This document shows, piece by piece, positions 12,195-59,407 of a stretch of 64,000 nt of DNA (position 1 is its first letter; every line of letters starts with the position of its first letter). The position numbers and the translations under genes are program-made. Source of the stretch: an uncultured Gammaproteobacteria bacterium (GTDB lineage: Bacteria; Patescibacteriota; Microgenomatia; Levybacterales; UBA12049). The stretch spans positions 8,129-72,128 of the forward strand of contig CAZHKZ010000002.1 in assembly GCA_964533055.1 (NCBI GenBank). Reading direction: 5' to 3'. The notes beneath the pieces were generated by a model. That model was given only the letters and a program-made list of their open reading frames with translations. It was not told where the DNA came from and did no database searches.

Positions 12195-12195
12195 G

Positions 12196-16161: not shown

Positions 16162-16165
16162 TCAT

Positions 16166-17863
16166 ATGAGATTTTTTAAGGATAACTTTTCATCTCTTCT
16201 TTTTCTTTTACTCCTCTCAGTAGTGACCATTCTCCCAGCACTTTTATACCCCCAGAGATCAGCCAACATGGACGGCATTGTTCATACTCTTGTTCCAAAT
16301 CTTTTCGCAAAGGCAATAAGTCAGGGCGACTTCCCTGTGACATGGGTTGATGGGTTCGCAAATTATGGGCTACCACTTGGAATTATTTCTCATCAAGTGA
16401 CCACATACTTAACTGCATTTATTATCCTTATTGTTCAAAATCCAGTAGTTGCATTTAATATAGTCGGTTTTATCGGAATTCTTCTCTCGAATATTTTTTT
16501 CTTTCTCTTTTTAAAAAAATACTTTTCAACACCTACGTCACTCACCGCAGTAGTTCTCTTTAATTTCTCACCATATAGAATTCTTAATTTTTATATTAGA
16601 GGTGCAATGCCTGAATTCTTTGCCAGCGTGTTCATACCCCTCATACTCCTCAGCCTTTTTGGCATATTTAAGGAAAGAAGAGTGTCAAGCTTTTTCCTCC
16701 TCATCCTGTCGGTGTGCTTTCTCATATTGACCCATCCTTTTATGTTAGTGGTAAGCCTCTTTCTCGTTGTTCCATACATTCTCTTTCTTACTGTTACAGA
16801 TGAGAAAATAGGTGAGTGGATAAGATCCTTTTTTAGAAAGAATATTCGTCCCATTATCGTGTCTTCTCTTGGTTTTGTAGTTGGCACAGGAATAGCATCT
16901 TATTTTCTCCTTCCGCTTCAAAAAGAGATTCAGTATTTTTATTATGGACTTTCTCCAAATCATCTAACCGCCAATAGCTATCTCACTCTTTATAATTACG
17001 TCGCCAACCCATGGGCTTACTTTACGAAGCTTGATATTGTGCATAGAGGATTCCTCATTAATGTGGGAATAATTGAATCACTTCTGGTTGTTTTAGCAGG
17101 AGGATTTTTTCTTTATAAAATTGTGAGTCTCAGAAGAGCCTATAAGGTAAGTATTGTTGATTTTGGCTTCTTTTGCTCCCTTATCATTATCTTTATGATG
17201 AGTCCATGGAGCACAGTTTTTTATGAGAAAATCCCAATGTTAAGTAACGTGCAGTTCCAATGGCGAATGCTTTCAGGCTTTATATTTCTTCCCCCTATCA
17301 TCGCAGCCTTTTTTCTCTCGAAGGTATCATCGCTAAAGTATCATGTACTTCTCATCCTCACTGTCCTTGTAGTAATAATGCCTCAACTTTATGGAAAGAA
17401 CTACACGCAGTACCCACAAGGGTATTACTCGTTTACGCCATTGAATCTTCATGCGACTGTTATGAATACGATTTGGAGTGGTGAGTCAGGAGAGTATCCT
17501 GTAGGTAAGCCTAAGGCTGAAATTATCCAGGGAGATGGATCGGTAAAGATTGAGAAGATGAAAGATTCACAGAGAGCATATCTTATTAATGCAAAGAGTG
17601 ATGTCCGCGTTGTTGATCGAACATTCTATTTTCCTGGATGGAATCTTTTAGTTGATGGCGTAAATCAACCGATTCAGTTCCAAGATCCTCTCTACAGAGG
17701 GGTTATTACCTATGATGTTCCCAAAGGTGATCATCGTATAGTGCTTGATTTTAAGCCAACAAAAACACGAATGGTTGGGGAATATCTTTCACTATTCTTT
17801 ATAGGTATAGTAGTAGGTATGTATTTATTTAGAAAAAAGATCCAGAGATTTATGCGAGAATAA
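16166..17863 (+). CDS. Uncharacterized polytopic membrane protein, tandem paralog of 14476-16161 (family A, copy 2)
   Basis: Reads QGDFPVTWVDGFANYGLPLGI ... FYFPGWNLLVDGV...YRGVITYDVPKGDHRIVLDF. It has the same architecture and similar length (565 vs 561 aa) as copy 1. Confidence 0.6.
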   Translation: MRFFKDNFSSLLFLLLLSVVTILPALLYPQRSANMDGIVHTLVPNLFAKAISQGDFPVTWVDGFANYGLPLGIISHQVTTYLTAFIILIVQNPVVAFNIVGFIGILLSNIFFFLFLKKYFSTPTSLTAVVLFNFSPYRILNFYIRGAMPEFFASVFIPLILLSLFGIFKERRVSSFFLLILSVCFLILTHPFMLVVSLFLVVPYILFLTVTDEKIGEWIRSFFRKNIRPIIVSSLGFVVGTGIASYFLLPLQKEIQYFYYGLSPNHLTANSYLTLYNYVANPWAYFTKLDIVHRGFLINVGIIESLLVVLAGGFFLYKIVSLRRAYKVSIVDFGFFCSLIIIFMMSPWSTVFYEKIPMLSNVQFQWRMLSGFIFLPPIIAAFFLSKVSSLKYHVLLILTVLVVIMPQLYGKNYTQYPQGYYSFTPLNLHATVMNTIWSGESGEYPVGKPKAEIIQGDGSVKIEKMKDSQRAYLINAKSDVRVVDRTFYFPGWNLLVDGVNQPIQFQDPLYRGVITYDVPKGDHRIVLDFKPTKTRMVGEYLSLFFIGIVVGMYLFRKKIQRFMRE

Positions 17864-17867
17864 TTTT

Positions 17868-18419
17868 ATGAAATACATTTATATTTTTATAGTATTTCTC
17901 TATCTTGCGATTACAACAGCTCTGTATTTCCAGCGAAATAGTGAGAGGATGTCATTGCCACTCACACCTTTTGTCTCTGATGATGCTTCAGCTCAAAGAT
18001 TAGCATATAGCTTTGCATATGACACCACAGATAATTCTCTTTTTATTGTAAGATTGGTTCATAATAAGGTTGAAACATCTCTCCATACATTTTTCTCATC
18101 AGCACTTAGGGCAGCAGACATACCCTTTCTCTTTGGCCTCTCAAAGACAGTTTCTTCACCTTATCAAATGGATTACAAGATACCCCCATTATTCTTAGTT
18201 GAATTACCCTTCTTTTTATTCTCTTGTTGGTACTTCATAACTAGGTACGAAAATGAGAAAAAAACTGTGATAGTCTTTGCACTTTCAGGAATAGTGAGTC
18301 TTATGATTGTGGGACTCTTTACCCCAGCTCTTCATCCATTGACTTTGCTTCCCCTTGTTCTCTGTATAAGAACGTTCACAGGTATTGGTGTTGTTAGTTT
18401 TATAAAAAGTAAAAAATGA
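17868..18419 (+). CDS. Hypothetical small membrane protein
   Basis: 183 aa with hydrophobic helices at both ends. It sits within the operon, and the downstream gene overlaps it with ATGA. Confidence 0.45.
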   Translation: MKYIYIFIVFLYLAITTALYFQRNSERMSLPLTPFVSDDASAQRLAYSFAYDTTDNSLFIVRLVHNKVETSLHTFFSSALRAADIPFLFGLSKTVSSPYQMDYKIPPLFLVELPFFLFSCWYFITRYENEKKTVIVFALSGIVSLMIVGLFTPALHPLTLLPLVLCIRTFTGIGVVSFIKSKK

Positions 18420-20077
18420 AAGAAAAAATTTGTATCGTTGTATTTATCTGTATAGGGATCTTTTTGCGTGTTTATCAATTTGGCTCAGTACCCGCGGGTC
18501 TTTTTTCGGATGAAATATCTATTGCTGTTAATAGCAAGACGATTGCTCAAAGTGGAGTTGATGAATACGGAAGGACATATCCATTTGCATTTGAATCGCT
18601 TTCAGATTATAAAATGCCTGGATATATTTATCTCAGCGCAGTTGCATACAAAATTTTTGGTCCATCAGTTGCATCAGTACGAATTACTGCACTCATTGCC
18701 TCTCTAATTAGTATCTTCTCATTCGCGTATTTAGCACAACTCCTTTTTCCTAAGAGGAAAAATATTTTTCTCTATACGTGTCTTGTTGTTTCTCTTTGCC
18801 TATTTCATATTCATTTTTCTCGAATTGCATATGAGACGATGCTGGCTACGATGTGGCTCAGTATATTCCTCATTGGTTTTTGGAAAGTTGTCCATGAAAA
18901 GATACGGTTACACTGGGTAGTCATCACTATCTGCTGTGCAATCTTTAGCATGTGGTCTTACTATGCCCCTCGTTTTATCATCCCATTATTCTCTTTTGGC
19001 TATCTATTCTATTTAATGCTAATGGCGGAGAAGGGGAAGCGACTTTCATATCGACCCTGGCTGATTGTACTTGCTGCGACAGTAATAGCGTACCTCCCGA
19101 CATTTTTTGGATCCAAAATTGACAATAGGCCTCTAAGCTATCTTATGTCAGATACGGGTGGGGGAATAATTGCATCGGTTTTACTCAAGGCAAGATCAGT
19201 TCTCGCATCATTCACTTGGATATTCAACCTTGAATTCTTATTCGATAAAGGTGATCAATTTGCTTTTAGACATGGTACAAAAAATAACGGTGTCTTTATG
19301 AGTATATTTTTAGTTCCATATATTCTTGGCCTCCTTTTTATTTTTAAAAACTTTGCTATGAAGAACAAATCAATAGTATTTATTTGCATGTTTGCGATTG
19401 TAGCGGGGCTCCCGTCATCCCTGACATCACCGGTTCCTTACGCACCAAGACTGCTTCCAATGGTCCTTCCACTAACTCTACTTATTAGCTTAGGCATTGT
19501 TGGATGCAGAACATTACTTGAGAAAACGAGGAGGTTTGTGCAGATAGGGATTATAGTGGGAGTAGTATGCTTGCTTATGTATCAAATTCTTGTCTTCAGC
19601 CATCTTTACTTTGTTCATTTTGCGAAAGACAGTCAGCCAGAATTCTCGCAAGCATCAGTTGACCTGGGAAAATATATTGCCATTCAGCATGCTAGTGCAC
19701 CTGAAAATAATATTTATTACTTGAATGGTAAGAGTTGTCATAATTGGGGGCACGATGATCTTTATTTATGGTATTACACAGAACTTCCAAATAAAGAGTT
19801 GATCGCATGGAATAATTTGTTTAGAGATGAGAGATATAAAGAATCGAGCCCATTTGATGCGTATGACCATATCATTGCCCCATCTGGTCATATCGGCTCT
19901 ATCTTTATTAATTTACCACTTGAGGAAGTAATCTCTGCTCCAAAAGGGTCATTGATAGTTCGATGTGGTATCAATGAATCGTCTATTGAGAAGAATAATG
20001 AGAAAATTGTAAAGGCCTTTTATATGTATCCAAAAGAAAGTAGAGAGCTTTTTTATATTGTGACAGTTAAGCTCTAG
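18416..20077 (+). CDS. PMT_2/ArnT-family GT-C glycosyltransferase, paralog 3
   Basis: Reads LFSDEISIAVNSKTIAQSGVDEYGRTYPFAFESLSDYKMPGYIYL, with the same loop-1 DE motif and Y(K)xPxYIY pattern as 10539 and 12196. Confidence 0.7.
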   Translation: MKEKICIVVFICIGIFLRVYQFGSVPAGLFSDEISIAVNSKTIAQSGVDEYGRTYPFAFESLSDYKMPGYIYLSAVAYKIFGPSVASVRITALIASLISIFSFAYLAQLLFPKRKNIFLYTCLVVSLCLFHIHFSRIAYETMLATMWLSIFLIGFWKVVHEKIRLHWVVITICCAIFSMWSYYAPRFIIPLFSFGYLFYLMLMAEKGKRLSYRPWLIVLAATVIAYLPTFFGSKIDNRPLSYLMSDTGGGIIASVLLKARSVLASFTWIFNLEFLFDKGDQFAFRHGTKNNGVFMSIFLVPYILGLLFIFKNFAMKNKSIVFICMFAIVAGLPSSLTSPVPYAPRLLPMVLPLTLLISLGIVGCRTLLEKTRRFVQIGIIVGVVCLLMYQILVFSHLYFVHFAKDSQPEFSQASVDLGKYIAIQHASAPENNIYYLNGKSCHNWGHDDLYLWYYTELPNKELIAWNNLFRDERYKESSPFDAYDHIIAPSGHIGSIFINLPLEEVISAPKGSLIVRCGINESSIEKNNEKIVKAFYMYPKESRELFYIVTVKL

Positions 20078-20986: not shown

Positions 20987-22519
20987 ATGAAAGCTCTCAC
21001 GACATTAAATCAAGATAAATGGTGGCAGCTACTCCTAGCTCTGATAATTCTTTCCACACTTTTTGTTGGAATTGGAACAATTCTCATTGGTAACTTTCCA
21101 TTTTGGTATGATCCAGCGAGAGATTTTTTGATGGCATGGGACAATCTGTCACACCCAACATTGATTGGACCTACATCTGGAATACCCGGAATTTTCTATG
21201 GACCGTATTGGATCTGGTTACTCTCAGTTGGTGTGTTCATTTCTAAAGACCCCAGAATTGCCATGTTAATTGTCCTAGCAATCCCTTACTTGCTCATTTT
21301 GCCCATATTCTTTATCCGAGCCATGAAGTCATACGGGAAGGTCGCATTGGTGGGAGTTTGGGGACTTTATGCTGCAACATTTGGAATTGAATATGCTACA
21401 AAGCCTTGGAATCCCTATCTTGCACCAATTCTCCTCATTGTTCTCATTGCAATATTCTCCAATCTTGAACTGAAGAATATCTCTAAAAATACAATTTCTC
21501 GCTTGCTATTAGCAGGAATTGTGGGTGGGCTAATCGCAAATGCCCATCTGTCTCTTGGATCTGGGATACTGATTGGCTCAGGTTTCTATTTGATTTTATC
21601 GACAATATTTGCTGACTCAGTGAGTAGAGGAGATTTAGTGAAAAGACTCATTCATAGCGTAGCTTCGGGCGTGGTTTTTGTAATTGGGGTAGGGATTAGT
21701 TTTATTCCATATATGCTTTTTGAAGCTAGGCATGGGTTTAACCAGACTAAGATGCTTATTTTTATGGTGACGAGTCCATTCCCGGTTGTCGGAGTTTTGG
21801 GCTTAAGTAAAGATGATATTTTACGTCAATTTCCATTAGTAGCAGTTCGCCTGCTTGGTATTCCAGAGAAGTTTATTGTGATTGTTTTCGCTGTTATCAC
21901 ACTTCTATTTATCATATTGCTTGTTGAGAAGAAGATCGCTTTAACATTGTCGGACAAAAAAATATTGGGAAGCATTTCGTGCATCTTTGTAGCACTTTTT
22001 ACAATTTATATGACGTCTAAAAATCCAGTTTGGGAGTATCATTTTATAGGTATGGAAGTTCTTTTACTTTTCTACATCCTTATCATTGCAGATAAGATGC
22101 GCTTAATCAGATTTGCAATCATTATTTTTGCTGGAAGCTTGTTGATTTCACATGTGTCAAGTTTCACCCATGTTTTGCAGTCAGATGAGCGTTTTGAAGA
22201 TGTCTTGTCTACAAAGGTTGAAGTAACCGAATCTGTGATGAGAGATGCGAAAGGTTCTAATTATGTTGTATATCCACATAGTTCATCGATTTATACATAT
22301 GATTATGCCTATCTTTTTAGATGGAAAAAGGGAGTGAATGTTCCATTTGATCCTTCACAGAATACATATAAGTCAAATACCGCATATCTTATTATTCCTT
22401 CAGTGGGAACAGCTGTAAAGCAAGATTTTATTTCAGGAAAGACCAGGGACGGCGGATATGTGCTTACCAAAGAATGGGCTGTTCGAGAAGTGGAAGTGCA
22501 AAAAATTGAAAAGAAATGA
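20987..22519 (+). CDS. Uncharacterized polytopic membrane protein (possible GT-C)
   Basis: 510 aa with about 12 hydrophobic helices. The N-terminal loop carries NFPFWYDPARDFLMAWDN. No family assigned. Confidence 0.5.
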   Translation: MKALTTLNQDKWWQLLLALIILSTLFVGIGTILIGNFPFWYDPARDFLMAWDNLSHPTLIGPTSGIPGIFYGPYWIWLLSVGVFISKDPRIAMLIVLAIPYLLILPIFFIRAMKSYGKVALVGVWGLYAATFGIEYATKPWNPYLAPILLIVLIAIFSNLELKNISKNTISRLLLAGIVGGLIANAHLSLGSGILIGSGFYLILSTIFADSVSRGDLVKRLIHSVASGVVFVIGVGISFIPYMLFEARHGFNQTKMLIFMVTSPFPVVGVLGLSKDDILRQFPLVAVRLLGIPEKFIVIVFAVITLLFIILLVEKKIALTLSDKKILGSISCIFVALFTIYMTSKNPVWEYHFIGMEVLLLFYILIIADKMRLIRFAIIIFAGSLLISHVSSFTHVLQSDERFEDVLSTKVEVTESVMRDAKGSNYVVYPHSSSIYTYDYAYLFRWKKGVNVPFDPSQNTYKSNTAYLIIPSVGTAVKQDFISGKTRDGGYVLTKEWAVREVEVQKIEKK

Positions 22520-24048
22520 AAAACTTTTTTAAACCCATATTTATCCTTTTAGCGATAGTATTGCTTGCTGCGTTCCTGAGACTTTATAAAGTAGACTCAA
22601 ATCCGCCAGGACTTTACATTGACGAAGTCTCTATTGGTTATAACGCCTACACGATTCTGACTAAAGGCGTTGATGAGTATGGTACTCCGTTCCCATTATG
22701 GTTTAGGTCGTTCGGAGATTATAAGATGCCTGTCTATATCTATGCTGTTAGTGGTTCGATGTTGGTATTTGGTAAGACAGAGCTCGCAGTAAGATTGCCA
22801 TCAATTGTGGCGGGTATCATGACCGTACTTATTCTCTATCTTTTTATTAGAGGGTTTGAAAAAAAGACAGATAAGCGGGGTGAATATAAATATCTAGCAA
22901 TATTAAGCTCATTTCTCCTAAGCATTTCTAGCTATCATATTCAGTTTTCTAGAGGTGGCTTTGAAGTCAACGTAGCGCTCTTTATTTTCTTGAGCGGTTG
23001 TCTCTTCCTTCAGTACTTCTTAAAATACCAGCAAAAAAAATATCTCGCAGTAAGTTTTTGTCTTTTTGTTTTAAGTTCATACACGTATCATTCTTTCAGA
23101 GTTCTTGCTCCGATAGCTATTTTCACAGGACTCATTCTCCTTAATACTATGCGAAGTCTCACGAGGAGAGAAATTTTTTTGAGCGGAATAAGTTCGCTGA
23201 TATTATTTTTGCCGTTAATTATTTTTTCAGTAAGTCCAAATGGATCACAAAGATTTAGTCAGACCTCGATTTTTTCAGAATATCCGCTTACAAACGAATG
23301 GGCAAAGCTTTATACGTATCCAATGGTCCTTTTAAAAAATTACGTTTCGTATTTTTCGCTTCATTTTCTTTTTAGTTTTGGAGATGGCATTGGGAGACAT
23401 CAGGTTCCAGGTTTTGGCCTTCTTTTTAGAACTCAGCTCCCACTTCTGATTGCAGGTATTGCTGCACTCATTAAGATGAGAAAGACTATGCTTGCAAGAA
23501 CAATGCTATTTTTGCTCCTTGTTGCGCCAATCCCTGCAATGCTTGCAAGACCAAGTCCTCACAGCCTCAGACCACTTCTTATTGTCATTCCGTTAACAGT
23601 GATTATGGCCATGGGCCTGCGCTACCTCTTTACTGGGTTTGGAAGATGGGGTAGGGGTGTTGTACTTATCTTAGCCTGCATCTTCGTGTATGAGTTTAGC
23701 TCTTACCTTTTTAGCTACTATGTTCGCTACCCGCAGATCAATGCCCTTGATTGGGGAGCAGGATATAAAGAGATTGTTCAGAAGGCAGGAGCGCATAAAG
23801 ACGAATATCCACGTATTGTTATTGATAAAAAACTTGATAATGCTCTAATCTATTTCAAATTTTACGACGAGTCTCTTGATCCTATTCTTGTAGGCAACGA
23901 CTGGAAATTTCCATTGGGAATAAGCGGTGTTAAAACAATGTATATTCGGCCAAATTATGGCAACGTATCTGAAAATGTTTTTGATACGGTTAAATTGCCT
24001 GGGAAATATGGCGATACGTTCGCTCAGTTTTGGAGGGAAAGTCAGTGA
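22516..24048 (+). CDS. PMT_2/ArnT-family GT-C glycosyltransferase, paralog 4
   Basis: Reads LYIDEVSIGYNAYTILTKGVDEYGTPFPLWFRSFGDYKMPVYIY, with the same DE-loop signature. ATGA overlap upstream. Confidence 0.75.
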   Translation: MKNFFKPIFILLAIVLLAAFLRLYKVDSNPPGLYIDEVSIGYNAYTILTKGVDEYGTPFPLWFRSFGDYKMPVYIYAVSGSMLVFGKTELAVRLPSIVAGIMTVLILYLFIRGFEKKTDKRGEYKYLAILSSFLLSISSYHIQFSRGGFEVNVALFIFLSGCLFLQYFLKYQQKKYLAVSFCLFVLSSYTYHSFRVLAPIAIFTGLILLNTMRSLTRREIFLSGISSLILFLPLIIFSVSPNGSQRFSQTSIFSEYPLTNEWAKLYTYPMVLLKNYVSYFSLHFLFSFGDGIGRHQVPGFGLLFRTQLPLLIAGIAALIKMRKTMLARTMLFLLLVAPIPAMLARPSPHSLRPLLIVIPLTVIMAMGLRYLFTGFGRWGRGVVLILACIFVYEFSSYLFSYYVRYPQINALDWGAGYKEIVQKAGAHKDEYPRIVIDKKLDNALIYFKFYDESLDPILVGNDWKFPLGISGVKTMYIRPNYGNVSENVFDTVKLPGKYGDTFAQFWRESQ

Positions 24049-24659: not shown

Positions 24660-25631
24660 ATGAGGTATGTTGTAACTGGAGGAGCAGGTTATATAGGTGG
24701 ATTTATGACCGTGAGACTTCTTGAAGATGGTCATGAGGTCATCGTTATTGATAGTCTTGAGCGTAGCCATATTGAGTCACTCGATAGTAGATTGATTCTT
24801 GAACAAGGTAATCTTTTGGATAAGAAGTTCTTAAAAAATGTTTTTACCAAATATAAAATTGATGCAGTTTTTCATTTTGGAGGCTATATCTCAGTTTCAG
24901 AATCAGTCTCAAAGCCTTCAGCATATTTTGCAAATAACTTTCTTGCCACCCTCAACCTTCTAGATCAAATGGTAGAGAGTGGAGTTGAACGGATCATTTT
25001 CTCATCTAGCGCTGCAGTTTATGGAAATCCAACCATGGTTCCAATCCCTGAAAGCCACCCAAAGTCGCCAGAAAGTCCGTATGGTGATAGTAAGTGGATG
25101 GTAGAGCGTATTCTTCATTGGTATTTTGTCTCTAACAAGATTCGCTCAGTTGCTCTTCGATATTTTAATGCGTCAGGTGCAGCCCTTGATGGGTCGCGTG
25201 GCGAGGCGCATGATCCTGAGACACACATCATCCCACTGGCTATCGCTGCAGCTATGAAAGGCACTACATTTACCTTATTTGGAAGTGACTATGAGACAAG
25301 GGATGGTACTTGTGTGCGTGATTATATACATGTGCTTGATCTAGTTGAAGCACATGTGCTTTCGTTGAAAAAAATTGAGAAAGATGCTGGAAGCTTTGCT
25401 TACAATGTTGGAACTGGAAGTGGATATTCCAATCAGGAGATAGTAGATATGGTAAAGCAGGTCAGTGGCAAGACACTAGACGTTGCTCTCAAAGACAGAA
25501 GAGCAGGTGATCCTGGGGAGTTGATAGCTAAAGTGGATTTGATTAAGAAAGATCTTGGCTTTAATCCAAAATTCTCAGATCTTCAGACAGTAATTGGAAG
25601 CGCCTGGAAATGGCACTCAAAGAAAGCATGA
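24660..25631 (+). CDS. galE: UDP-glucose/UDP-galactose 4-epimerase
   Basis: Reads VTGGAGYIGGFMTVRLLEDGHEVIVIDSL (Rossmann GxxGxxG), then YxxxK as PYGDSKWMVE and YFNASGA. The 323-aa length fits GalE. Confidence 0.8.
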   Translation: MRYVVTGGAGYIGGFMTVRLLEDGHEVIVIDSLERSHIESLDSRLILEQGNLLDKKFLKNVFTKYKIDAVFHFGGYISVSESVSKPSAYFANNFLATLNLLDQMVESGVERIIFSSSAAVYGNPTMVPIPESHPKSPESPYGDSKWMVERILHWYFVSNKIRSVALRYFNASGAALDGSRGEAHDPETHIIPLAIAAAMKGTTFTLFGSDYETRDGTCVRDYIHVLDLVEAHVLSLKKIEKDAGSFAYNVGTGSGYSNQEIVDMVKQVSGKTLDVALKDRRAGDPGELIAKVDLIKKDLGFNPKFSDLQTVIGSAWKWHSKKA

Positions 25632-26686
25632 AAATAGCCCTGGATATCTCCCCACTTTCATCTGGACATAAGGTTCGCGGCGTCGGTTTCTATGTTAAAT
25701 ACCTTATGGAAGCACTGGTAAAGCATGACACACTTCATGAATATCAGTTTTTTAATAGCATTAATGAGGTTAAATCTGCAGATATTATTCACATCCCATA
25801 TTTTGATCCATTTTTCAGGCATCTCCCGATTTTGAAAAAAGCGCCGACAGTAATTACAATTCATGATCTTACGCCTATAAAATTTCCTTCACACTTCCCG
25901 GTAGGTATGAAAGGAAGTGCGCTTTGGCAGGTAAATAAGAGACTTGCCCTCTTATCAAGTGCAATTATTACTGATTCAGATTCATCGACAAATGATGTCA
26001 TCGAGCTTATGGGGGCAAGACGAGAAAGGGTTCATACGGTTTATCTTGCACCTGGTGACCAGTATTCAAGTAGAACTGCATCAAGTTTTCAGATAAAAGA
26101 CCTCATTAAAAAATATAAATTACCAAAAGATTTTGTTCTCTACGTTGGGGACGTAACCTGGAATAAAAATCTTCCTCGAATTGTTGAGGCTGCGATCAAG
26201 GCTCAAATTCCACTTGTATTGGTAGGTAAAGCAATTGCAAATACAGATTTCGATAGATCTCATCCATGGAATGCAGATCTTTTAGCTGTCCAGAAATTGA
26301 CATATGGCAATAATGATCTCTATGTGCTTGGATTTGTGCCAGATGATGAGCTGAAGGCTCTCTATGCTCACGCAAAAGCTGTCTTACTTCCATCTCTCTA
26401 CGAAGGATTTGGACTGCCTGTTGTTGAGGCAATGGCATCAGGGTGTCCAGTGATTACGTCAAAAATGGGATCGTTAAGCGAGGTAGCTGGAAATGCTGCG
26501 TACTTTGTTGATCCTTACAGTATTGAAGCAATTGCTGACGGAATAAAGGATGTTTTTCAGAGTAAGTCGCTTCAAGCGCAGTTAAGAAAAAGTGGACATA
26601 TTCAGGTTGAGAAATTTAGTTGGAAGAAAACAGCTCTTGCAACAATAGATGTTTATGAAAAAGTTGTTATGGGCAAATCATTATGA
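25628..26686 (+). CDS. Family 4 (GT-B) glycosyltransferase
   Basis: The ATG at 25628 overlaps the galE TGA (ATGA). C-terminal motif EGFGLPVVEAMASGCPVITSKMGSLSEVAGNAAYFVDP. Confidence 0.8.
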   Translation: MKIALDISPLSSGHKVRGVGFYVKYLMEALVKHDTLHEYQFFNSINEVKSADIIHIPYFDPFFRHLPILKKAPTVITIHDLTPIKFPSHFPVGMKGSALWQVNKRLALLSSAIITDSDSSTNDVIELMGARRERVHTVYLAPGDQYSSRTASSFQIKDLIKKYKLPKDFVLYVGDVTWNKNLPRIVEAAIKAQIPLVLVGKAIANTDFDRSHPWNADLLAVQKLTYGNNDLYVLGFVPDDELKALYAHAKAVLLPSLYEGFGLPVVEAMASGCPVITSKMGSLSEVAGNAAYFVDPYSIEAIADGIKDVFQSKSLQAQLRKSGHIQVEKFSWKKTALATIDVYEKVVMGKSL

Positions 26687-27960
26687 TAGTTACAGTAGTT
26701 GCATTAGTAAGAAGGTTTATCAGGCATCCCCTAATCACAGGTAGTTCAATTGTCTTTATTGGTTCATTTTTAGTTAGTATTACAAACTATATTTATAATT
26801 TGTTAATGGGTAGATTCCTTTCTGTTCAAGATTATGGATTGCTGACCTCTCTTACCTCAATTTTGGTGTTATTAGGGTTGTTCAGTAACGCATTCACCAA
26901 TGTTTTTGTTAAATTCTCTGCATCTTTTAAAAGTCAGGAGAATGAAGGTGGGATAAATTTATTAAAAGCATATGGAATAAAGTCTTTAAGAATTTTCGCA
27001 CTTTGTCTTTTGGTTTTATTAGTAGTTGCCTCACCATTTATTCAGAAATTTTTACACATAGACCATATTGAATACATATTTTTAATAGTTAGCGCTGTTA
27101 TATTCTCATTATTCTTAACACTACCCCTTGGCATTTTACAGGGAAGAATGCAGTTCCTTTTATTATCAGCAGCGAATATCAGTCAGCCAATTATTAAGAT
27201 TATTGTTTCAGTTACCCTGTTAATATTAGGCTTCTCCGTAATTAGTCCGTTAATAGCAATTTCGGTTTCTACTTTAATACCTTTAATCATTCTTTATTAC
27301 ATGCTGTTTTCAAAAAATGGGAGGGGAATAAATAAGGACTTAGATGTTGGTCTATTCAGAAAAGACTTTATACATTTTTCCTATACGTTTTTTTTGGCTG
27401 GTGTTGGAATTGCTTTATTGTCGAATACAGATATTCTTCTAGTGAGGGTTTTCTTTAGCGATATCGTTTCTGGACAGTATGCAGCACTGTCGCTAATGGG
27501 AAAAGCGATATTCTATCTGATAATGCCGATAAATTTTGCCTTCTTTCCCTTAATAGCTTATAAGAGAGAAAGAAAAGAGAGATTATTTGGAACTGTTCTT
27601 CTTGCATTTTTGATTGTAGGATCAGCATCAATTCTCTTGTCCTTTATATATTTTGTTTTCCCATCACTAGTCTTGGGAATTTTCTTTCCAGCACCTGATT
27701 ATAAAGTACTTAAAGATTATCTTGGTATCTATTCAATCTATATTATTCTATTTTCATTCGCCACGTTGTTTGCCAATTTTTTCTTATCAATTGGTAAAAC
27801 CGACATTTATAAAATTTCATTGTTTGCAGCATTTTTTCAAATATTTGCGATCATCTTATTTCACAAATCATTACTTGAAGTAATTCTTTGTCTGCTTATA
27901 GTTTCATTATTGTTTTTGCTTGTCCTGATAGGCTATTATCTTAAGCATGGAAAAGATTAA
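26683..27960 (+). CDS. Wzx-like oligosaccharide flippase (MOP superfamily)
   Basis: 425 aa with about 12 TM helices. The N-terminus resembles polysaccharide-biosynthesis (Wzx) proteins. ATGA overlap. Confidence 0.6.
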   Translation: MIVTVVALVRRFIRHPLITGSSIVFIGSFLVSITNYIYNLLMGRFLSVQDYGLLTSLTSILVLLGLFSNAFTNVFVKFSASFKSQENEGGINLLKAYGIKSLRIFALCLLVLLVVASPFIQKFLHIDHIEYIFLIVSAVIFSLFLTLPLGILQGRMQFLLLSAANISQPIIKIIVSVTLLILGFSVISPLIAISVSTLIPLIILYYMLFSKNGRGINKDLDVGLFRKDFIHFSYTFFLAGVGIALLSNTDILLVRVFFSDIVSGQYAALSLMGKAIFYLIMPINFAFFPLIAYKRERKERLFGTVLLAFLIVGSASILLSFIYFVFPSLVLGIFFPAPDYKVLKDYLGIYSIYIILFSFATLFANFFLSIGKTDIYKISLFAAFFQIFAIILFHKSLLEVILCLLIVSLLFLLVLIGYYLKHGKD

Positions 27961-29806
27961 GCTTCTTACGCTAGTTGTCCCGACCTATAAACAAGAAAAA
28001 ACCATTTTAAGAAACATTAAGAAGTTACAAGCTTCGGTTAGAAACCTTCCATTCAAAACAGAAATTATTGTTGTAATAGATGGTCACCTCGATAAGACTC
28101 CACAAATCTTAAAAAATATTCAATCTAAAAGCCTTAGAATTATTGGGTATCCAGAAAATCAGGGAAAAGGATTTGCAGTTCGCTATGGGATGCTGCAAGG
28201 TAAAGGGGATGTAATTGGATTCATTGATGGAGATTTAGATATTAACCCTACAGGTATTTCAATGTTGATTAATCATCTTCAGTGGTATGACGCAGATATT
28301 GTTATTGGGAGTAAGCTTCATCCTGTATCTCAGGTTGATTATCCAGTTTTTAGAAAAATACTTTCATGGGGATATAGGAATCTTATACGTTTGCTTTTTG
28401 GGTTAAAGGTCAGAGATTCACAGGTTGGACTGAAACTTTTTAGGAGAAAAGTAGTTATGGATGTTTTCCCGAGACTACTAGTTAAGAAATTTGCATTTGA
28501 TATTGAGGCATTAGCTGTTTCGCATCACTTAGGTTACAAGAGAATATTTGAAGCCCCCATTAGATTAGAGTTTAAATATTTGAGTAATCTCAATGCGAAA
28601 ACATTTTGGAAGACTATATTATTTATGAGTTGGGACACAATGGCTGTATTCTATCGACTTCATATTTTGAACTATTACAACGAATCTAGGAAATTATCCA
28701 ACGCTAAAAAAATTGTAATATTTAACTGGAGAGATATTAAGAATCCTTTATCAGGTGGAGCTGAAATACTCACCCATGAAATTGCTAAAGGCTTAGTTGC
28801 TGAAGGTAATACAGTGACAATCTTTTGTTCTCATTTTAAGAAAGGTAAAAGAAGAGAGATGATTGACGGAGTATTAATTATTAGACAAGGAAATCCCGAT
28901 ATTCGATCGTTGTTTAACTCTGTCCACTGGAAGGCATTTCGTTATTACTCAAGATATCTAAAAGGAAATGTCAATGTTGTTATAGACGAAATACACGGTG
29001 TACCATTTTTTACAAGATTATATGTTAAGGAAAGAATTGTTGTTTTAATATGCGAGGTTGCAAATAATGTTTGGGATACAGCATTTTCTTTTCCATGGAA
29101 TATACTGGGTAAATATTCTGAAAAATTGTTTATTAATTTTTATCGTGGACTTGCTTTCTTCACCATTTCACAATCAACTAAAAAAGATTTAGTCGATATT
29201 GGGATTTCAGCTGAGTCTATAAAAGTTATCCCAATGGGCATATCAACATATAAGTTGCCCAAAGTCAAAAAGGAGACGTATCCTACAGCAATTTTTGTTG
29301 CGCGCATTAATAAAATGAAAGGAATAGAAGACGCAATTGAAGCTTGGAAAACCGTATGTAATAAATATCCCAAAGCAATGCTTTGGGTGGTGGGAAAAGG
29401 AGATGAAAATTACCTTAACTATTTGGGTAAAAAAATTAAGTTATTAAAGCTTGAGAACAATATTCAGTTCCACGGTTACATTTCTGAAGAGAAAAAATTT
29501 AAACTTTTGGCAAAGGCTCACTTTATTGTCTCCCCATCAATTAGAGAAGGTTTCGGTCTAACAATTCCAGAAGCTGGATCAGTATTCACGCCAGCAGTTA
29601 TTTATGATGCGCCAGGCTTGAGGGAATTGGTTGATTCCACAAACGGAATTAGGTTGAAAAAAAATTCTGTAGAAGAATTGTCTAAAGCGATGTTATCGAT
29701 GTTTTCTAGTAGCCAAAAAACCTTAAGAATGGGTAGACATGCTTATAGAAAAAGTATAATATATAGGTGGGAAAATACAGTAAATTCTTTTAAGGAAGCA
29801 ATATAA
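27947..29806 (+). CDS. Bifunctional glycosyltransferase: N-terminal DPM1/GtrB-like GT2 fused to C-terminal GT4
   Basis: The N-terminal roughly 230 aa read LTLVVPTYKQEK...VVIDGHLDKT...NQGKGFAVRYGMLQGKGDVIGFIDGDLDINP. The C-terminal region carries the GT4 motif EGFGLTIPEAGSVFTPAVIYDAPGLRELVDS. It is a single 619-aa ORF. Confidence 0.7.
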   Translation: MEKIKLLTLVVPTYKQEKTILRNIKKLQASVRNLPFKTEIIVVIDGHLDKTPQILKNIQSKSLRIIGYPENQGKGFAVRYGMLQGKGDVIGFIDGDLDINPTGISMLINHLQWYDADIVIGSKLHPVSQVDYPVFRKILSWGYRNLIRLLFGLKVRDSQVGLKLFRRKVVMDVFPRLLVKKFAFDIEALAVSHHLGYKRIFEAPIRLEFKYLSNLNAKTFWKTILFMSWDTMAVFYRLHILNYYNESRKLSNAKKIVIFNWRDIKNPLSGGAEILTHEIAKGLVAEGNTVTIFCSHFKKGKRREMIDGVLIIRQGNPDIRSLFNSVHWKAFRYYSRYLKGNVNVVIDEIHGVPFFTRLYVKERIVVLICEVANNVWDTAFSFPWNILGKYSEKLFINFYRGLAFFTISQSTKKDLVDIGISAESIKVIPMGISTYKLPKVKKETYPTAIFVARINKMKGIEDAIEAWKTVCNKYPKAMLWVVGKGDENYLNYLGKKIKLLKLENNIQFHGYISEEKKFKLLAKAHFIVSPSIREGFGLTIPEAGSVFTPAVIYDAPGLRELVDSTNGIRLKKNSVEELSKAMLSMFSSSQKTLRMGRHAYRKSIIYRWENTVNSFKEAI

Positions 29807-29807
29807 T

Positions 29808-30965
29808 ATGAGAAAATTTATACATTTTACACAACCATTGTTTGGCAAAGAGGAAAGAAAGGAAGTCTTAGATGCTATGGCAAGCGGTTGGGTAACATTG
29901 GGGCCCAAAACAAAGCAATTTGAAGAAGATTTTGCTAAATATGTTGATGCTAAGTTTGCGATAGGCGTTACATCATGTACTGCAGGCCTTCATTTATCTC
30001 TTGTTGCTGCAGGTATTGGGTCAGGTGATGAAGTAATCACAACTCCATTTACATTTGTTGCCTCAGTTAACGTGATAGAGCATGTTGGGGCAAAGCCAGT
30101 CTTTGTTGATGTAGAAAAGGATTCCTTTCTCATGGATGCTGATCAGATTGAAAAGGTAATTACAAAAAAAACAAAAGCTATCATCCCTGTTCACTATGGT
30201 GGGCAAGCAGTAGATATGAGAAAAATTATGAAGATCGCTAAAAAACATAATTTAGTCGTTATTGAGGATGCTGCACATGCAACTGGTGCAATGTTTAACG
30301 GTCAAAAAATTGGAACCCACGGAGATTTTGTAAATTTTTCCTTCCATCCAGTTAAAAATATGTCAACCGGTGATGGGGGAATGATAACTACAAACAATCA
30401 AAAATACGCTGAGATTCTTAGCCAACTTAGACTGCATGGTATGAGCAAAGATGCCTGGAAGCGTCATTCAGCAAGCGGTTCATGGAAATATGACATTGTC
30501 TCTCCTGGTTATAAGTACAATATGACAGACATACAGTCAGCTCTTGGGATTCAGCAGTTAAAGAAACTGCCGTCTTTCATCAAAACAAGACAAAAATACG
30601 CCAAAATCTATGATGATTTGTTTATCAATACACCTGAAATATCTATCCCAGCTGTTTTACGCAAGGGAGAGCATATTTATAGTCTTTATACGGTTAAAAT
30701 CAATTCTGCAAATCTATCTATTGATAGGGATGAGATTATTGAATTATTAAAAGAAGCTCAAATTGGACCGAGTGTGTACTTTATTCCTGTGCATCACTTT
30801 ACCTACTATAAAGATAAATATAAATTTAATCCAAAGAAATTCCCTGTAACAGAGGAGATTTTTACACAGATTATTTCTTTGCCGTTGTACCCAGGGATGA
30901 AAGAAGCAGATATCAGATATGTTGCTAATCAACTCGTATCAATTATTTCTTCACATAGAAAATGA
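29808..30965 (+). CDS. DegT/DnrJ/EryC1/StrS-family PLP-dependent nucleotide-sugar aminotransferase
   Basis: Reads VTLGPKTKQFEEDFAKYV...AIGVTSCTAGLHL, with the PLP-lysine context FSFHPVKNMSTGDGGMITTNN. 385 aa. Confidence 0.85.
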   Translation: MRKFIHFTQPLFGKEERKEVLDAMASGWVTLGPKTKQFEEDFAKYVDAKFAIGVTSCTAGLHLSLVAAGIGSGDEVITTPFTFVASVNVIEHVGAKPVFVDVEKDSFLMDADQIEKVITKKTKAIIPVHYGGQAVDMRKIMKIAKKHNLVVIEDAAHATGAMFNGQKIGTHGDFVNFSFHPVKNMSTGDGGMITTNNQKYAEILSQLRLHGMSKDAWKRHSASGSWKYDIVSPGYKYNMTDIQSALGIQQLKKLPSFIKTRQKYAKIYDDLFINTPEISIPAVLRKGEHIYSLYTVKINSANLSIDRDEIIELLKEAQIGPSVYFIPVHHFTYYKDKYKFNPKKFPVTEEIFTQIISLPLYPGMKEADIRYVANQLVSIISSHRK

Positions 30966-31708
30966 AATATTCATGGAGAGTCCTTGAATTTGATTCTAGA
31001 ATATTTGGACTCACTTTCGCCAAAGTCCTCCTTTCAGATTCTGGAGACCATACGGATGAAGATATTGCAATTTTAATCAATGAACTAGTCGAGCAAGGAG
31101 TGTCCTATGCAAGCGTACGAATTCCAATAACTAATTTGGAAGCAGTACATCAATTTGAGAAGAACTCCTTTGTTTTAGTCGACTCACTTGTCGCGTTAAG
31201 CAAAAAAATTGACGATCAAACACCGGATCCTATCGAAAATGAAAATATAAGAAGAGCAAAGATTGAAGATCTTGAGATGCTAAAACAAATTGCAGAGGAT
31301 TCAATGGTGGAGAATAGATTTTACAGAGATCCTTTTTTTAAGAAAATGCTTCGAAAGGTTCGAAAGATATACTCTGGATGGATTGAAAATTCATTCAAAA
31401 AAATAGTAGCTGATGAAATTTTGGTTTATTTAAAAAACAATATTCCAGTTGGGTTCATTGTCCTTGAGAATTCTGGGCATATCCCACTAATAGCAGTTTC
31501 GCAAGAGCATCGGGGGAGTGGTATCGCAAGTACTCTTATTCAGCACGCGGTCGGTCATTTTAAACGTGATAAAATAAGCTTGGTACTGATTGAAGCCATT
31601 CTTGGGAACATCTCTGCGATCAGAGCTTATGAAGCCAATGGCTTTAAGATGACCGGGGGATTCTATACGCTTGCTTGGCATAATGATCACATTACTTCTC
31701 ATAATTAG
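30962..31708 (+). CDS. GNAT N-acetyltransferase with N-terminal extension (WecD/amino-sugar N-acetyltransferase-like)
   Basis: The C-terminal GNAT core reads IAVSQEHRGSGIASTLIQHAV...IRAYEANGFKMTG. The two-domain layout of about 248 aa resembles WecD, and the gene is ATGA-coupled to the aminotransferase. Confidence 0.55.
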   Translation: MKYSWRVLEFDSRIFGLTFAKVLLSDSGDHTDEDIAILINELVEQGVSYASVRIPITNLEAVHQFEKNSFVLVDSLVALSKKIDDQTPDPIENENIRRAKIEDLEMLKQIAEDSMVENRFYRDPFFKKMLRKVRKIYSGWIENSFKKIVADEILVYLKNNIPVGFIVLENSGHIPLIAVSQEHRGSGIASTLIQHAVGHFKRDKISLVLIEAILGNISAIRAYEANGFKMTGGFYTLAWHNDHITSHN

Positions 31709-33167
31709 TGTAATAATTCCAATCCTAGCATTCTTTTTTGAGATTTACCCTAGACTCATCAATAAAAAGATAGGTGTGGATATTTGGACACACCTTTTGT
31801 ACCTTAAAGAATATAAAAAACAAAAAGGTATACCAAATAATATTTCAGATGGGTTTATCATTCCTGGAGGCTATGATTATCCACCAATGTTTATAACATT
31901 GTTATCAAAGTTCTCTATTAGAATTGTTGAGAAATATGAATATCTCTTCTCTCCCTTTTTCGACTTGATACATCTTATAGCTATTTTCTTTATTACGTAT
32001 GTGATCACTGGTGATTTAGCAATGTCATTACTGACACAAGCACTCTATACTCTGACACCAATAATAATTCTTGAGAATTCAAGCGCAACACCTAGATCTC
32101 TTGGGTATCTATTATTTACGCTCTTATTTTTTTCAATTTTTAACTACACAAATAGTGGATATGAATTATTTTTGCTCTTAGCTATCTTATTCGGTTCACT
32201 AATTCTTCTTACACACAGATTCACAACACAGGGATTCTTAATTTATTCTATAGTGTTCTCGCTTGTTGAACTAAATCCTGTGTATATTGAAATTTTTCTT
32301 GGCTCGTTTCTTGGCGCAATTATCTTTTCAAAAGGATTTTATTTGAAGGTATTAGCTGGTCATATAGGAAATTTAAAATTTTGGTATAAAAATATCGAAT
32401 TTAGATTTTTCCATCAGATAAAAGGAGATTATAAATCTCATAAAAGTTCAGATTTCGTATTTAAAATCTACAATCAATTCATAAATATCCCCCCAGTTGT
32501 TCTTGCAGTAACAAATCCTTGGATATTATTTGTATTTCTGTCTATGCTTTTCTATTTTCCATCTGACCCTATTTTACAGAGGTTATTATTATGGATTATG
32601 ATCTCCTACGTTCTTGCGTTAGTTACTATTTGGGTTAAAAAACTTCGATTTTTAGGGGAGGGTCAAAGATATCTTGAGCTATCAGCTTTTCCATCTGCCT
32701 TCTTGGCAGCAAGATTTATACTTCAATATAGAGTGGATAATTTAACTCTTTCGATATATGGGCTAGCAACAATTGTGGGGATTTCCTCGCTTGTAACAAT
32801 CATTGTGATTCAGAGAAAAGCGATAATTAAGGACAGATTGCGAACACTCATTCCAGAGTTAGAGAATATGTATTTATATATCAAAAAAATGAAGAAAAGA
32901 CCAAGAATTCTTTGTATTCCTCATCAAATAACAACAAATACGATTTTTCATACTGGTGCTGATGTTTTTGTTAATGCAAATTATAGGGATATTGAAAAGA
33001 TCTCAGAGGCTTATCCGTTTTTTAGAGTGCCAATCAACAGTTTTATGAAGAAACATAAACTCGATCTAATTTTACTTAATGAAGAATATGCAAAAATCTC
33101 AGATTTAAAAATTAGAGGTTACAAAGTATTGAAGAGATTTGGGAATATCGTTCTGTTATCTATTTAG
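31671..33167 (+). CDS. Uncharacterized polytopic membrane protein (family B, copy 1)
   Basis: 498 aa with about 12 TM helices. Conserved motifs YPRLINKKIGVDIWTHLL, GGYDYPPMF, GEGQRYLELSAFPSAF and PRILCIPHQITTNTIFHTGADVFVNANY. The start could instead be the ATG at 31683. Confidence 0.55.
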   Translation: MLGIMITLLLIISVIIPILAFFFEIYPRLINKKIGVDIWTHLLYLKEYKKQKGIPNNISDGFIIPGGYDYPPMFITLLSKFSIRIVEKYEYLFSPFFDLIHLIAIFFITYVITGDLAMSLLTQALYTLTPIIILENSSATPRSLGYLLFTLLFFSIFNYTNSGYELFLLLAILFGSLILLTHRFTTQGFLIYSIVFSLVELNPVYIEIFLGSFLGAIIFSKGFYLKVLAGHIGNLKFWYKNIEFRFFHQIKGDYKSHKSSDFVFKIYNQFINIPPVVLAVTNPWILFVFLSMLFYFPSDPILQRLLLWIMISYVLALVTIWVKKLRFLGEGQRYLELSAFPSAFLAARFILQYRVDNLTLSIYGLATIVGISSLVTIIVIQRKAIIKDRLRTLIPELENMYLYIKKMKKRPRILCIPHQITTNTIFHTGADVFVNANYRDIEKISEAYPFFRVPINSFMKKHKLDLILLNEEYAKISDLKIRGYKVLKRFGNIVLLSI

Positions 33168-37594: not shown

Positions 37595-39703
37595 ATGCGT
37601 AAAGCAATAACTCTTGTTTTTTTTGTTCTCCTCTCGATTCTATTTTATAGAAATATCTTCAATGGATATTTTCAATCTGATGAATGGTTTTACTTCTCAC
37701 AATTCTTGCCTATACTCAATGGATTAGGTGGCTTATACGTTGCTTTAATCAAAAGTATTACAGAAACCGGAGTAATATCGGGAGGTGGCCATATGACCCC
37801 AATATATACTTTAATTTGGTATCTGCATAATTTGTTTTTTAAATTAAATTACTTTCCATACATCTTCATCAGTGTTCTGGTTCATGGAGTGAATGGTGCA
37901 CTTCTTTTCTCGTGGGTGTATTCACTAACTAAACGCATCTCTATCTCTATGGTGGCAGGAATATTTTTTGTAACTAGCTTTGCTCATTTTCAAGCTGTTA
38001 CGTGGGTAATGGCATACATTCCTACGGTTTATTCAGTGTTCTTTTTATTAATTTCCCTACTGTTGCTCACTCAATCCCTTTCAGGGCAGTTGATAGGGAA
38101 AAGAAAATTAATAGCGTCATTGATCTTTCTTATTTTAGCCATCTTAACCAAGGAGACAGCAGTTGTCGGACTTGTCATCTATATAATGCTTATCTTAATC
38201 CTAAAAAAATCCTCATTTATTCCGCTTCTATTTAAATGGCTTGTTCCAATTAGTATTGCATATATTTTGTTTCGCTTCGTACTTTCAGCGGTTGTTGAAA
38301 GATCATCAGTTGCTTTACTAGATAAGCTGCCACCCTTAGATCTTAATATCTTTAGAGCAATTGTTTATCCTATTAGAATAATGGCGTTATCATTTGTGCC
38401 TGTGCCACAAATATTAAAATTATCTGACAACTTTAGTAAATTTGCATACCCATCATTTGATATTAATAGTGGTGCGCAGCAGCGAGTCATTCAGGGGCCA
38501 GTAAGTGACATCTTCCTACTATTATTTGGAGTATTAATCATCTTTACTGCGATAAAGATAGGAAGAGGGCGAAATTTGCATAGAAAAGAAATGTGGATTG
38601 TCTACATGAGCCTTGTGATTGTTCTAACCTGTGCATTGCCACTACTATTGATCTCAACGTATGCACCATGGTGGGGATTTTCAATTTTTATAGATCCGAG
38701 GCATATCTATATTGGGTCTATTGGTGCTGGAATACTGTTTGCATTCCTTTTTTCAACTATTAGCTCCTCACTTTCAAAGTATATTTCTAAAGGGGTAATA
38801 CATGGGCTTCTTTTTGTAATTTTACTAACATGGATGTGGGCAAATTACAACCTATTGCAAGCTCAAATTGCAGAGGATGTTAAGGTTGGAAGAATGAGGC
38901 AGACCGTTATAGCAAGTCTTTTAAATAGTGTCAAAGTATTGCCAGAAAATGCGATCTTTCTTGTTGAAAGCCAAAATTCTTATTATGGCTTTAGTCATAT
39001 TCCACCTTTCCAAACTAACTTAGGGCAAATAATAGCAGTACAGTATTTTAACAAAGGACAAATTGAAAAAGCTTTTGTAACAGACCTCTATTTCTCTAAA
39101 GGAATAGAAGTTCAAGGTGTTATTTCTCACGAGGGCCATAGTTTTGGATATTATTTTAATCAGAATGCATTATTGCGTGATATTCTTAATAAAAAGATTT
39201 TACCTCAAAATATTGTTGCATTTACATGGGATGAGAATACAAACACATTAAAAAACAATTCGATAGAAAAGAGAAAACTATATGCAGAATTCTCTTCAAC
39301 TGCAAAACTATTGCAGGACTGGACTAAAAAATCAGATAAGCTATTCTCATTTTCGTATCCAAAGGAGGCAGAGTTGAGCGAATTCCCTGGGCAATTGTAT
39401 AGTTATGAAATATCTAGTGTGATGGGTGGGGTTAAGATTGAAATTCTTCAGAAGAAAAAAGAAGATCCATTCCATGAATATATTGCAACTCAAATTGACA
39501 GTCGTGGGAATTTAATTCAGGATGACTTTTTGATAGATAACGCAATCAGATATGACGGTACACTTGTCACATATTTAAAATTAAAAAATTATGAAGAGTA
39601 TTTCGTTCCATTCTCATCTGGTGAGTACTATTTAAAGGTAACTTCAGACAATCCAGACAATAATGTGTTGGTAAAAGGTATTCTTAGCACTATATTTTTT
39701 TAA
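37595..39703 (+). CDS. Uncharacterized large membrane protein (N-terminal roughly 470-aa polytopic domain plus roughly 230-aa soluble C-terminal domain)
   Basis: 702 aa. The loop after TM1 contains FQSDEWFYFSQF, a possible GT-C D/E motif. No confident family. Confidence 0.5.
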   Translation: MRKAITLVFFVLLSILFYRNIFNGYFQSDEWFYFSQFLPILNGLGGLYVALIKSITETGVISGGGHMTPIYTLIWYLHNLFFKLNYFPYIFISVLVHGVNGALLFSWVYSLTKRISISMVAGIFFVTSFAHFQAVTWVMAYIPTVYSVFFLLISLLLLTQSLSGQLIGKRKLIASLIFLILAILTKETAVVGLVIYIMLILILKKSSFIPLLFKWLVPISIAYILFRFVLSAVVERSSVALLDKLPPLDLNIFRAIVYPIRIMALSFVPVPQILKLSDNFSKFAYPSFDINSGAQQRVIQGPVSDIFLLLFGVLIIFTAIKIGRGRNLHRKEMWIVYMSLVIVLTCALPLLLISTYAPWWGFSIFIDPRHIYIGSIGAGILFAFLFSTISSSLSKYISKGVIHGLLFVILLTWMWANYNLLQAQIAEDVKVGRMRQTVIASLLNSVKVLPENAIFLVESQNSYYGFSHIPPFQTNLGQIIAVQYFNKGQIEKAFVTDLYFSKGIEVQGVISHEGHSFGYYFNQNALLRDILNKKILPQNIVAFTWDENTNTLKNNSIEKRKLYAEFSSTAKLLQDWTKKSDKLFSFSYPKEAELSEFPGQLYSYEISSVMGGVKIEILQKKKEDPFHEYIATQIDSRGNLIQDDFLIDNAIRYDGTLVTYLKLKNYEEYFVPFSSGEYYLKVTSDNPDNNVLVKGILSTIFF

Positions 39704-58307: not shown

Positions 58308-58320
58308 TAATTTTAATCGT

Positions 58321-59406: not shown

Positions 59407-59407
59407 C

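Follow-up and report, generated by a model that had tools for sequence, protein, structure and literature searches.

The polyprenyl-phosphate glycosyltransferases (PPGTs) PfDPMS, GtrB and ArnC and the mycobacterial Ppm1 proteins are the closest described counterparts of a fused glycosyltransferase (GT) gene found in a 64,000-nt stretch of DNA (here called the window) from a bacterium deposited as an uncultured Gammaproteobacteria bacterium but placed by GTDB in the Levybacterales of the Patescibacteriota (assembly GCA_964533055.1, contig CAZHKZ010000002.1, forward-strand positions 8,129 to 72,128). In PfDPMS, Arg117, Arg131 and Ser135 are ligands of the acceptor phosphate, and the enzyme cut at residue 229, which deletes its transmembrane (TM) part, is still membrane-targeted and active (PMC5526996). 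The mycobacterial PPM synthase domain (D2 of Ppm1 in Mycobacterium tuberculosis) also has no TM helix; domains D1 and D2 are fused in that species and split as Ppm2 and Ppm1 in M. smegmatis (PMC3485146). Both multi-domain GTs and polyprenyl-phosphate sugar synthases whose partner is fused in some cases and separate in others are already known, and the gene described here, in which a PPGT-like GT2 domain is joined to a complete GT4 domain, is a modest architectural variant of known enzyme kinds. The fusion is almost certainly genuine and derived from a conserved, coupled gene pair, and its recurrence, at times with a flippase included, suggests that these enzymes form one membrane-bound unit making a cell-surface glycan.

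The fused open reading frame (ORF; Table 1) translates without internal stop into a GT2 domain, then a long helix, then a complete GT4 domain, and its 5' end shares 14 nt with the upstream flippase gene. Its Pfam matches all lie above the curated cut-offs: Glycos_transf_2 at aa 9-174 (E 4e-22), Glyco_transf_4 at aa 270-434 (E 2e-13) and Glycos_transf_1 at aa 440-601 (E 7e-32). These profile boundaries bear out the initial annotation, which had described a single-ORF GT2-GT4 fusion with a complete C-terminal GT-B domain carrying an EX7E motif. Every NCBIfam score for the protein is sub-threshold, and no TM helix was found anywhere in the 619 residues (maximum KD19 1.31; threshold 1.6). The full-length predicted model has a predicted TM-score (pTM) of only 0.69, so that a fixed GT2-GT4 interface cannot be read from it, and a Foldseek comparison of this model with the PDB gave no two-domain template, the matches being to single-domain GT4 structures only.

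The same annotation had offered two readings, a coupling of lipid-donor synthesis to a cytoplasmic glycosylation step or an artefact of assembly, and its interpretation is borne out in part. Such an artefact would join two genes through an indel error in the run of seven A residues at the junction (28706-28712), where one A fewer would end the GT2 frame as ...AKKL*, and the fact that most relatives have split genes fits this explanation. However, runs of seven or more A are commonplace (41 in the window, three of them inside the fused gene), and around 28650-28770 the frame is uninterrupted, with both other frames stop-rich. The nearest relative of the window gene (locus L002; 63% identity in the GT2 half and 60% in the GT4 half) is split yet fully syntenic, with flippase, GT2, GT4, DegT and GNAT genes in turn; its GT2 ends ...KLIKNYSL* and its GT4 starts MKIVIFNW, where the window protein reads ...KLSNAKKIVIFNW. 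The linker L251-K255 stands where split relatives have an overlapping stop and start (ATGA), and the former GT4 ATG has become AAA. No ATG, GTG or TTG occurs at the homologous GT4 start position, the nearest TTG being codon 241 and the nearest GTG codon 290. Over window positions 25947-31806 (5.86 kb), an independent Logan assembly (L001) shows no base difference. Three further sequence variants in the 90%-identity cluster, from other assemblies and with 10, 21 and 36 amino acid differences, are all 619 aa long, and strain variants differ within the linker itself (N252S/T, A253V), so the joined frame is inherited and evolving. Together with the many unrelated fused homologues, these observations leave the artefact explanation with next to no probability; it is effectively refuted, whereas the fusion itself stands. 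Programmed frameshifting or slippage at the A run was also considered and rejected, given how common such runs are and that the GT4 half has no homologous start codon of its own.

How the fusion arose can be judged from its relatives. A locus scan, limited to one genome per species and ranked by the full-length query (a ranking biased toward loci with both halves), returned 80 loci, mostly from metagenome-assembled genomes (MAGs) of Patescibacteria/Microgenomates (Levy-, Gottesman- and Roizmanbacteria), with outliers in Hakubella, an Aenigmatarchaeote and an Acidimicrobiales MAG. Many TPA-assembled MAG records (loci L003, L005, L009, L022 and others) are titled 'uncultured Gammaproteobacteria bacterium', but in gene content and similarity their loci are clearly Levybacteria/Patescibacteria-like, and the titles look like placeholders. 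Where the two halves are adjacent they are split at 59 loci and fused at 3. The split junctions are tight, with the four-base ATGA overlap in 23 of the 59, a one-base overlap in six and a gap of at most 12 nt in most others, which is a signature of translational coupling. Read-through of an in-frame stop at split loci whose two genes share a frame was rejected, since the share of such loci is about that given by chance and the GT4 has its own ATG 3-12 nt past the stop.

Fused homologues also exist well outside the immediate relatives of the window gene. Divergent examples (P0002-P0008, P0021) have 35-50% identity at 98-99% coverage, and in an exhaustive search of 1.84 billion representatives this two-domain layout recurred in nine or more distinct clusters (50% identity), in about 590-770 aa. 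In a neighbour-joining tree of the concatenated halves (p-distances, without support values), fused forms turn up in six or more distinct places, always next to split sisters, and the linker of a fused protein looks like the C-terminal tail found in its split relatives. The scattered positions and the likeness of the linkers point to repeated fusion. The split state is common and evidently ancestral, and the fused state is derived, recurrent and in the minority.

The GT2 half has a GT-A fold whose nearest solved kin are PfDPMS (PDB 5mlz), GtrB (5ekp/9nye) and ArnC (8vxh), at an identity of only about 19-23%, and it is PPGT-like both in fold and in its acceptor-site residues. The residues aligned to the three phosphate ligands of PfDPMS, namely K123, R136 and S140, are invariant in sequence alignment (64/64 and 45/45). 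The segment that holds them also takes in the start of a predicted helix (aa 134-151) resembling interface helix 1 (IFH1), which with the predicted helix at aa 217-250 makes a candidate interface/juxtamembrane pair, although the hydrophobic moment of the second helix is modest (at most 0.33). In the GtrB-like GT2 of the window, the counterpart of the RDxQxGxK motif reads HDYNCGMK.

The GT2 half departs from the DPMS type in two ways. The first is the lack of a TM helix in the chain, which is not disqualifying, since truncated PfDPMS is active and Ppm1-D2 of M. tuberculosis is TM-less; in some relatives TM helices come from the fused flippase. The second lies in the DXD motif. A polyprenol-phosphate-sugar synthase signature had been claimed from the sequence GFIDGDLDINP, and this is indeed present (aa 91-101), but most family members have Gly in place of the second DXD Asp. 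In the family alignment D94 is kept in 64/64, D96 in only 6/64 (Gly in the other 58) and D98 in 60/64, with Asp or Glu at the D98 position in 64/64; the family consensus is D-A-G-M-D, and the window protein is among the few that keep D96. The D98 position corresponds to PfDPMS Gln93, and the near-invariant Asp there suggests, from the alignment, a shifted metal-binding arrangement. The equivalent of PfDPMS A-loop Arg202 is not conserved. On balance the GT2 half probably acts on polyprenyl phosphate.

The GT4 half is very probably catalytic, to judge from conservation: besides the EX7E motif, its glycine-rich loop is kept in all or nearly all relatives (G270 64/64, G271 64/64, A272 63/64, E273 64/64). 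For the same reason a role as a mere non-catalytic anchor is unlikely. Its N-terminus carries an NWRDxxxPxxGGAE loop, most of its residues are modelled with a predicted local confidence (pLDDT) above 90, and its nearest solved folds by Foldseek are retaining enzymes of the MshA, BshA and PimA type (target-normalised TM-score up to 0.78). No equivalog-level family match was found for this half.

Table 1. Positions in the window of the fused gene, its domains and motifs, and the neighbouring genes of the module
Feature	Coordinates	Strand	Basis and conservation
Fused GT2-GT4 gene	27947..29806	+	ATG start, 619 aa plus stop; ORF list, translation, Pfam
GT-A (GT2) catalytic core, PPGT-like	27947..28561	+	aa 1 to about 205
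D94-G-D96-L-D98 metal/donor motif	28226..28240	+	alignment to PfDPMS 89-DADLQ-93
K123...R136...S140, aligned to PfDPMS dolichyl phosphate (Dol-P) phosphate ligands R117/R131/S135	28313..28366	+	HMMER alignment
D157, within RDxQxGxK motif	28415..28417	+	sole residue invariant across all GT2-containing rows
Long aromatic-rich helix aa 217-250 (IFH2/JM2-like), end of GT2 half	28595..28696	+	AF2 secondary structure
Junction/linker L251-S-N-A-K255	28697..28711	+	comparison with L002; linker substitutions in strain variants
Complete GT4 (GT-B) domain, aa 255-619 (GT4b)	28709..29803	+	Pfam, Foldseek, pLDDT
EX7E motif, E534-E542	29546..29572	+	translation; 64/64 invariant
Two tandem 510-aa proteins, second = PMT_2 (GT-C)	20987..24048	+	Pfam
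NAD-dependent sugar-nucleotide dehydratase/epimerase, frequent accessory	24660..25631	+	Pfam; 43/81 loci
GT4a, second GT4 of the module	25610..26686	+	Pfam; 68/81 loci
Wzx-type (MOP, Polysacc_synt/Polysacc_synt_3) flippase	26683..27960	+	Pfam; homologue in 74/81 loci
DegT-family aminotransferase, variable accessory for amino-sugar donor	29808-30965	+	Pfam; 38/81 loci
GNAT acetyltransferase, variable accessory for amino-sugar donor	30962-31708	+	Pfam; 6/81 loci

The fused gene belongs to a conserved Patescibacteria module whose genes run GT4a, Wzx flippase, GT2, GT4b and which GT-C-type membrane transferases flank. Four loci with standalone GT2 homologues, looked up with the N-terminal half only as query to offset the ranking bias of the full-length search, all have this order (4/4), and genes of the GT-C type (PTPS_related or PMT_2) flank the module there too. 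In the window, the PMT_2 protein upstream of the module is a candidate extracytoplasmic transferase for the lipid-linked product.

The module is also found in more condensed forms. An Acidimicrobiales locus (L038, 5666-8932, + strand) has one ORF of 1,088 aa with Polysacc_synt_3 at aa 49-343, GT2 at aa 447-609 and GT4 at aa 734-1038; P0252 shares these three Pfam domains and their order, and about six further representative clusters (1,047-1,107 aa) match P0252 in length, in their 10-14 N-terminal TM helices and in the positions of their GT2 and GT4 matches. The flippase-GT2-GT4 representatives are P0252, P0254, P0260, P0261, P0264, P0265 and P0267, and their domain order is the gene order of the split module. 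Other combinations are flippase plus GT2 without GT4 (P0356, P0367), GT2 plus a second GT2 (P0293) and tandem GT4b-GT4b proteins of about 735-760 aa (P0009, P0011, P0013, P0020), in which each half opens with a (N/S)W(R/K)D...GGAE motif. Eight clusters of giant proteins, 1,750-2,350 aa (P0256, P0257, P0263, P0266, P0272, P0276, P0314, P0351), are laid out as about 12 TM helices, GT2, GT4, a second block of about 10-12 TM helices, some 400 soluble residues and a final TM helix. P0272 is NCBI MGO9198142.1 from an Acidimicrobiales MAG, and the largest giants of the Acidimicrobiales type reach 2,347 aa. For the second membrane block Pfam gives only a sub-threshold match to DUF6541 (E 1.2e-3), and its topology suggests a GT-C transferase. 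Some members of the giant clusters look split into two ORFs on one contig.

How might these enzymes work together? In the sequential mechanism that we favour, the GT2 half would move a sugar from a nucleotide sugar onto polyprenyl monophosphate at the cytoplasmic face of the membrane. The attached GT4b and GT4a would then extend the lipid-linked sugar with nucleotide-sugar donors, the Wzx flippase would carry the lipid-linked oligosaccharide outward, and a neighbouring GT-C enzyme would hand it to a surface acceptor. The fusion would hard-wire a 1:1 complex that the split genes reach by coupled translation. The lipid acceptor, the order of the reactions, the identities of the sugars and the target are parts that we infer, and we put the probability of the full sequence of steps at roughly 45%. 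It draws on four observations: the module holds an initiator-like enzyme, two elongators and a flippase; an initiating phosphoglycosyltransferase (PGT) is missing from its neighbourhood, with no Bac_transf homologue within 7 kb at 81 loci and no PGT family among the commonest 25 families of 130 flanking ORFs, although one may be encoded farther off in the genome; fusions of the flippase with GT2 or with GT2-GT4 recur; and there is a euryarchaeal precedent, as oligosaccharides are assembled on dolichyl monophosphate (PMC11407970).

Under this sequential model the module would resemble the N-glycan assembly of Haloferax volcanii, where soluble precursors are assembled into an oligosaccharide on a polyprenol carrier linked through a monophosphate (PMC11407970). 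The likeness to AglJ is weak (TIGR04182, E 1e-10, score 41.5 against a cut-off of 325), and, unlike the Haloferax system, the host is bacterial and no AglB/STT3 oligosaccharyltransferase or STT3 domain was found in any scanned ORF of the window. The module is also like the three-component Gtr system (GtrA flippase, GtrB synthase, GtrC GT-C) in having a PPGT-like GT2 beside GT-C transferases. However, its flippase is a 12-TM Wzx/MOP protein rather than a small GtrA, and the two GT4s integral to it imply that more than a monosaccharide is made.

The window itself carries a Bac_transf PGT (59399-60073) 30 kb away. This weakens the argument, made from the window alone, that GT2 must initiate because a PGT is lacking, and that argument has been replaced by the multi-locus comparison. 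The distant PGT also fits an ordinary Wzx/Wzy pathway. It would make an undecaprenyl-diphosphate-linked sugar, the two halves of the fusion would attach the two sugars that follow, and the likeness to DPMS would go back to nothing more than common GT2 ancestry. Wzx flippases classically take diphosphate-linked units, the same island has a Wzy_C-like protein, every NCBIfam score falls short of its threshold, and fusions of consecutive transferases are common. An example is the E. coli K4 chondroitin polymerase (2z86), which is among the GT2 matches and likewise has two catalytic GT domains per chain, although there two polymerising GT-A domains alternate on the growing chain, whereas the present fusion pairs a PPGT-like GT-A with a GT-B. 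Set against the absence of a PGT near the module at the 81 loci, an arrangement of this sort seems unlikely.

A second alternative resembles the mycobacterial LM/LAM pathway, in that two routes would converge: GT2 would make a polyprenyl-phosphate monosaccharide solely as a donor for GT-C enzymes, while GT4b and GT4a build a separate lipid-anchored acceptor, a glycolipid or a diphosphate-linked primer, that Wzx flips. The fusion would then balance the supply of donor and acceptor and would not channel a single intermediate. The window has six to eight GT-C-type genes that would need such donors, and GT4 enzymes often act on membrane lipids, with matches of the PimA and MGlcDAG-synthase type seen here. 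There is also the mycobacterial PPM synthase, likewise TM-less, whose interacting partner makes no use of its product and is encoded either in the same chain or separately (PMC3485146). The partner in Ppm1 is a six-TM membrane protein, unlike the GT4 and/or MOP flippase that accompanies the window-type GT2 and sets it apart from PfDPMS, GtrB and ArnC as well. However, the conserved module has no small flippase of the GtrA/ArnE type for a polyprenyl-phosphate monosaccharide; none of the GtrA family was found in the Pfam scans of the window or among the commonest 25 flanking families. The GT-C enzymes could be fed by other GT2s of canonical GtrB-like length, such as that at 46137-47069 (310 aa), and the flippase-GT2 and flippase-GT2-GT4 fusions fit a single product line more simply. 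Converging routes seem rather improbable.

Carrying the sequential model further, Patescibacteria, with some Actinomycetota and DPANN archaea, may assemble surface oligosaccharides in an archaeal style, on polyprenyl monophosphate, by a coupled line of flippase, PPGT-like GT2 and GT4 that needs no PGT. The window fusion, the flippase-GT2-GT4 proteins and the giants of 2,100-2,350 aa would then be successive stages of condensation toward one polypeptide. This broader proposal is tentative, and somewhat unlikely in its full form.

The module lies within a glycosylation island of roughly 60 kb that has ten GT2s, eight GT4s and six to eight GT-C-like polytopic proteins. The island takes up almost the whole window (1-62000), on one strand, and includes two flippase genes, several sugar-nucleotide modifying enzymes and methyltransferases. 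GT-C-like proteins occur as tandem pairs of about 510-565 aa that look paralogous (10539-13839, 14476-17863 and 20987-24048); by type these are a PMT/PMT_2 pair, a PTPS_related pair and a 510-aa pair. Single GT-C-like genes are a YfhO gene (4679-6910), a PMT_2 gene (53488-54945) and one with a weak PMT_2 match (18416-20077). The Wzy_C-like protein (50368-53481; 1,037 aa) is below cut-off, and on either side of the small Bac_transf PGT gene lie those for a mannose-1-P guanylyltransferase-like product (58180-59406) and for a DUF4012 protein (60117-62054). A 175-aa ORF (47283-47810) with only the N-terminal (Glyco_transf_4) half of a GT4 lies just upstream of a complete 372-aa GT4 (47815-48933) and may have arisen by gene splitting or as a shortened duplicate. 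Of the large ORFs in the island (630-1,140 aa), several match nothing in Pfam or DUF5667 only (40418-43840, 37595-39703, 44208-46100 and 7856-9802).

Patescibacteria are uncultivated, host-dependent organisms with small genomes, and to our knowledge almost nothing is known of the identity or assembly of their surface glycans; even so, about 60 kb of the window is given over to glycosylation. Public records name the proteins of the fused family just 'glycosyltransferase', and in the literature we found neither a DPMS-like GT2 described as fused with a GT4 or a Wzx flippase nor an account of this fusion or module in Patescibacteria. If the two halves are ordinary consecutive transferases, the fusion is a routine one. 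If GT2 initiates on polyprenyl monophosphate, the module would be a bacterial counterpart of the Dol-P-linked glycan assembly of Euryarchaeota, with a Wzx-type flippase physically coupled to the makers of its presumed substrate. As a ‘Rosetta stone’, the fusion indicates joint action, as one unit, of a TM-less DPMS-like GT2 with a GT4 and, by way of the related fusions, with a Wzx flippase, and it lets the anonymous ‘glycosyltransferase’ genes of this widespread Patescibacteria module be framed as a hypothetical four-gene pathway that can be tested.

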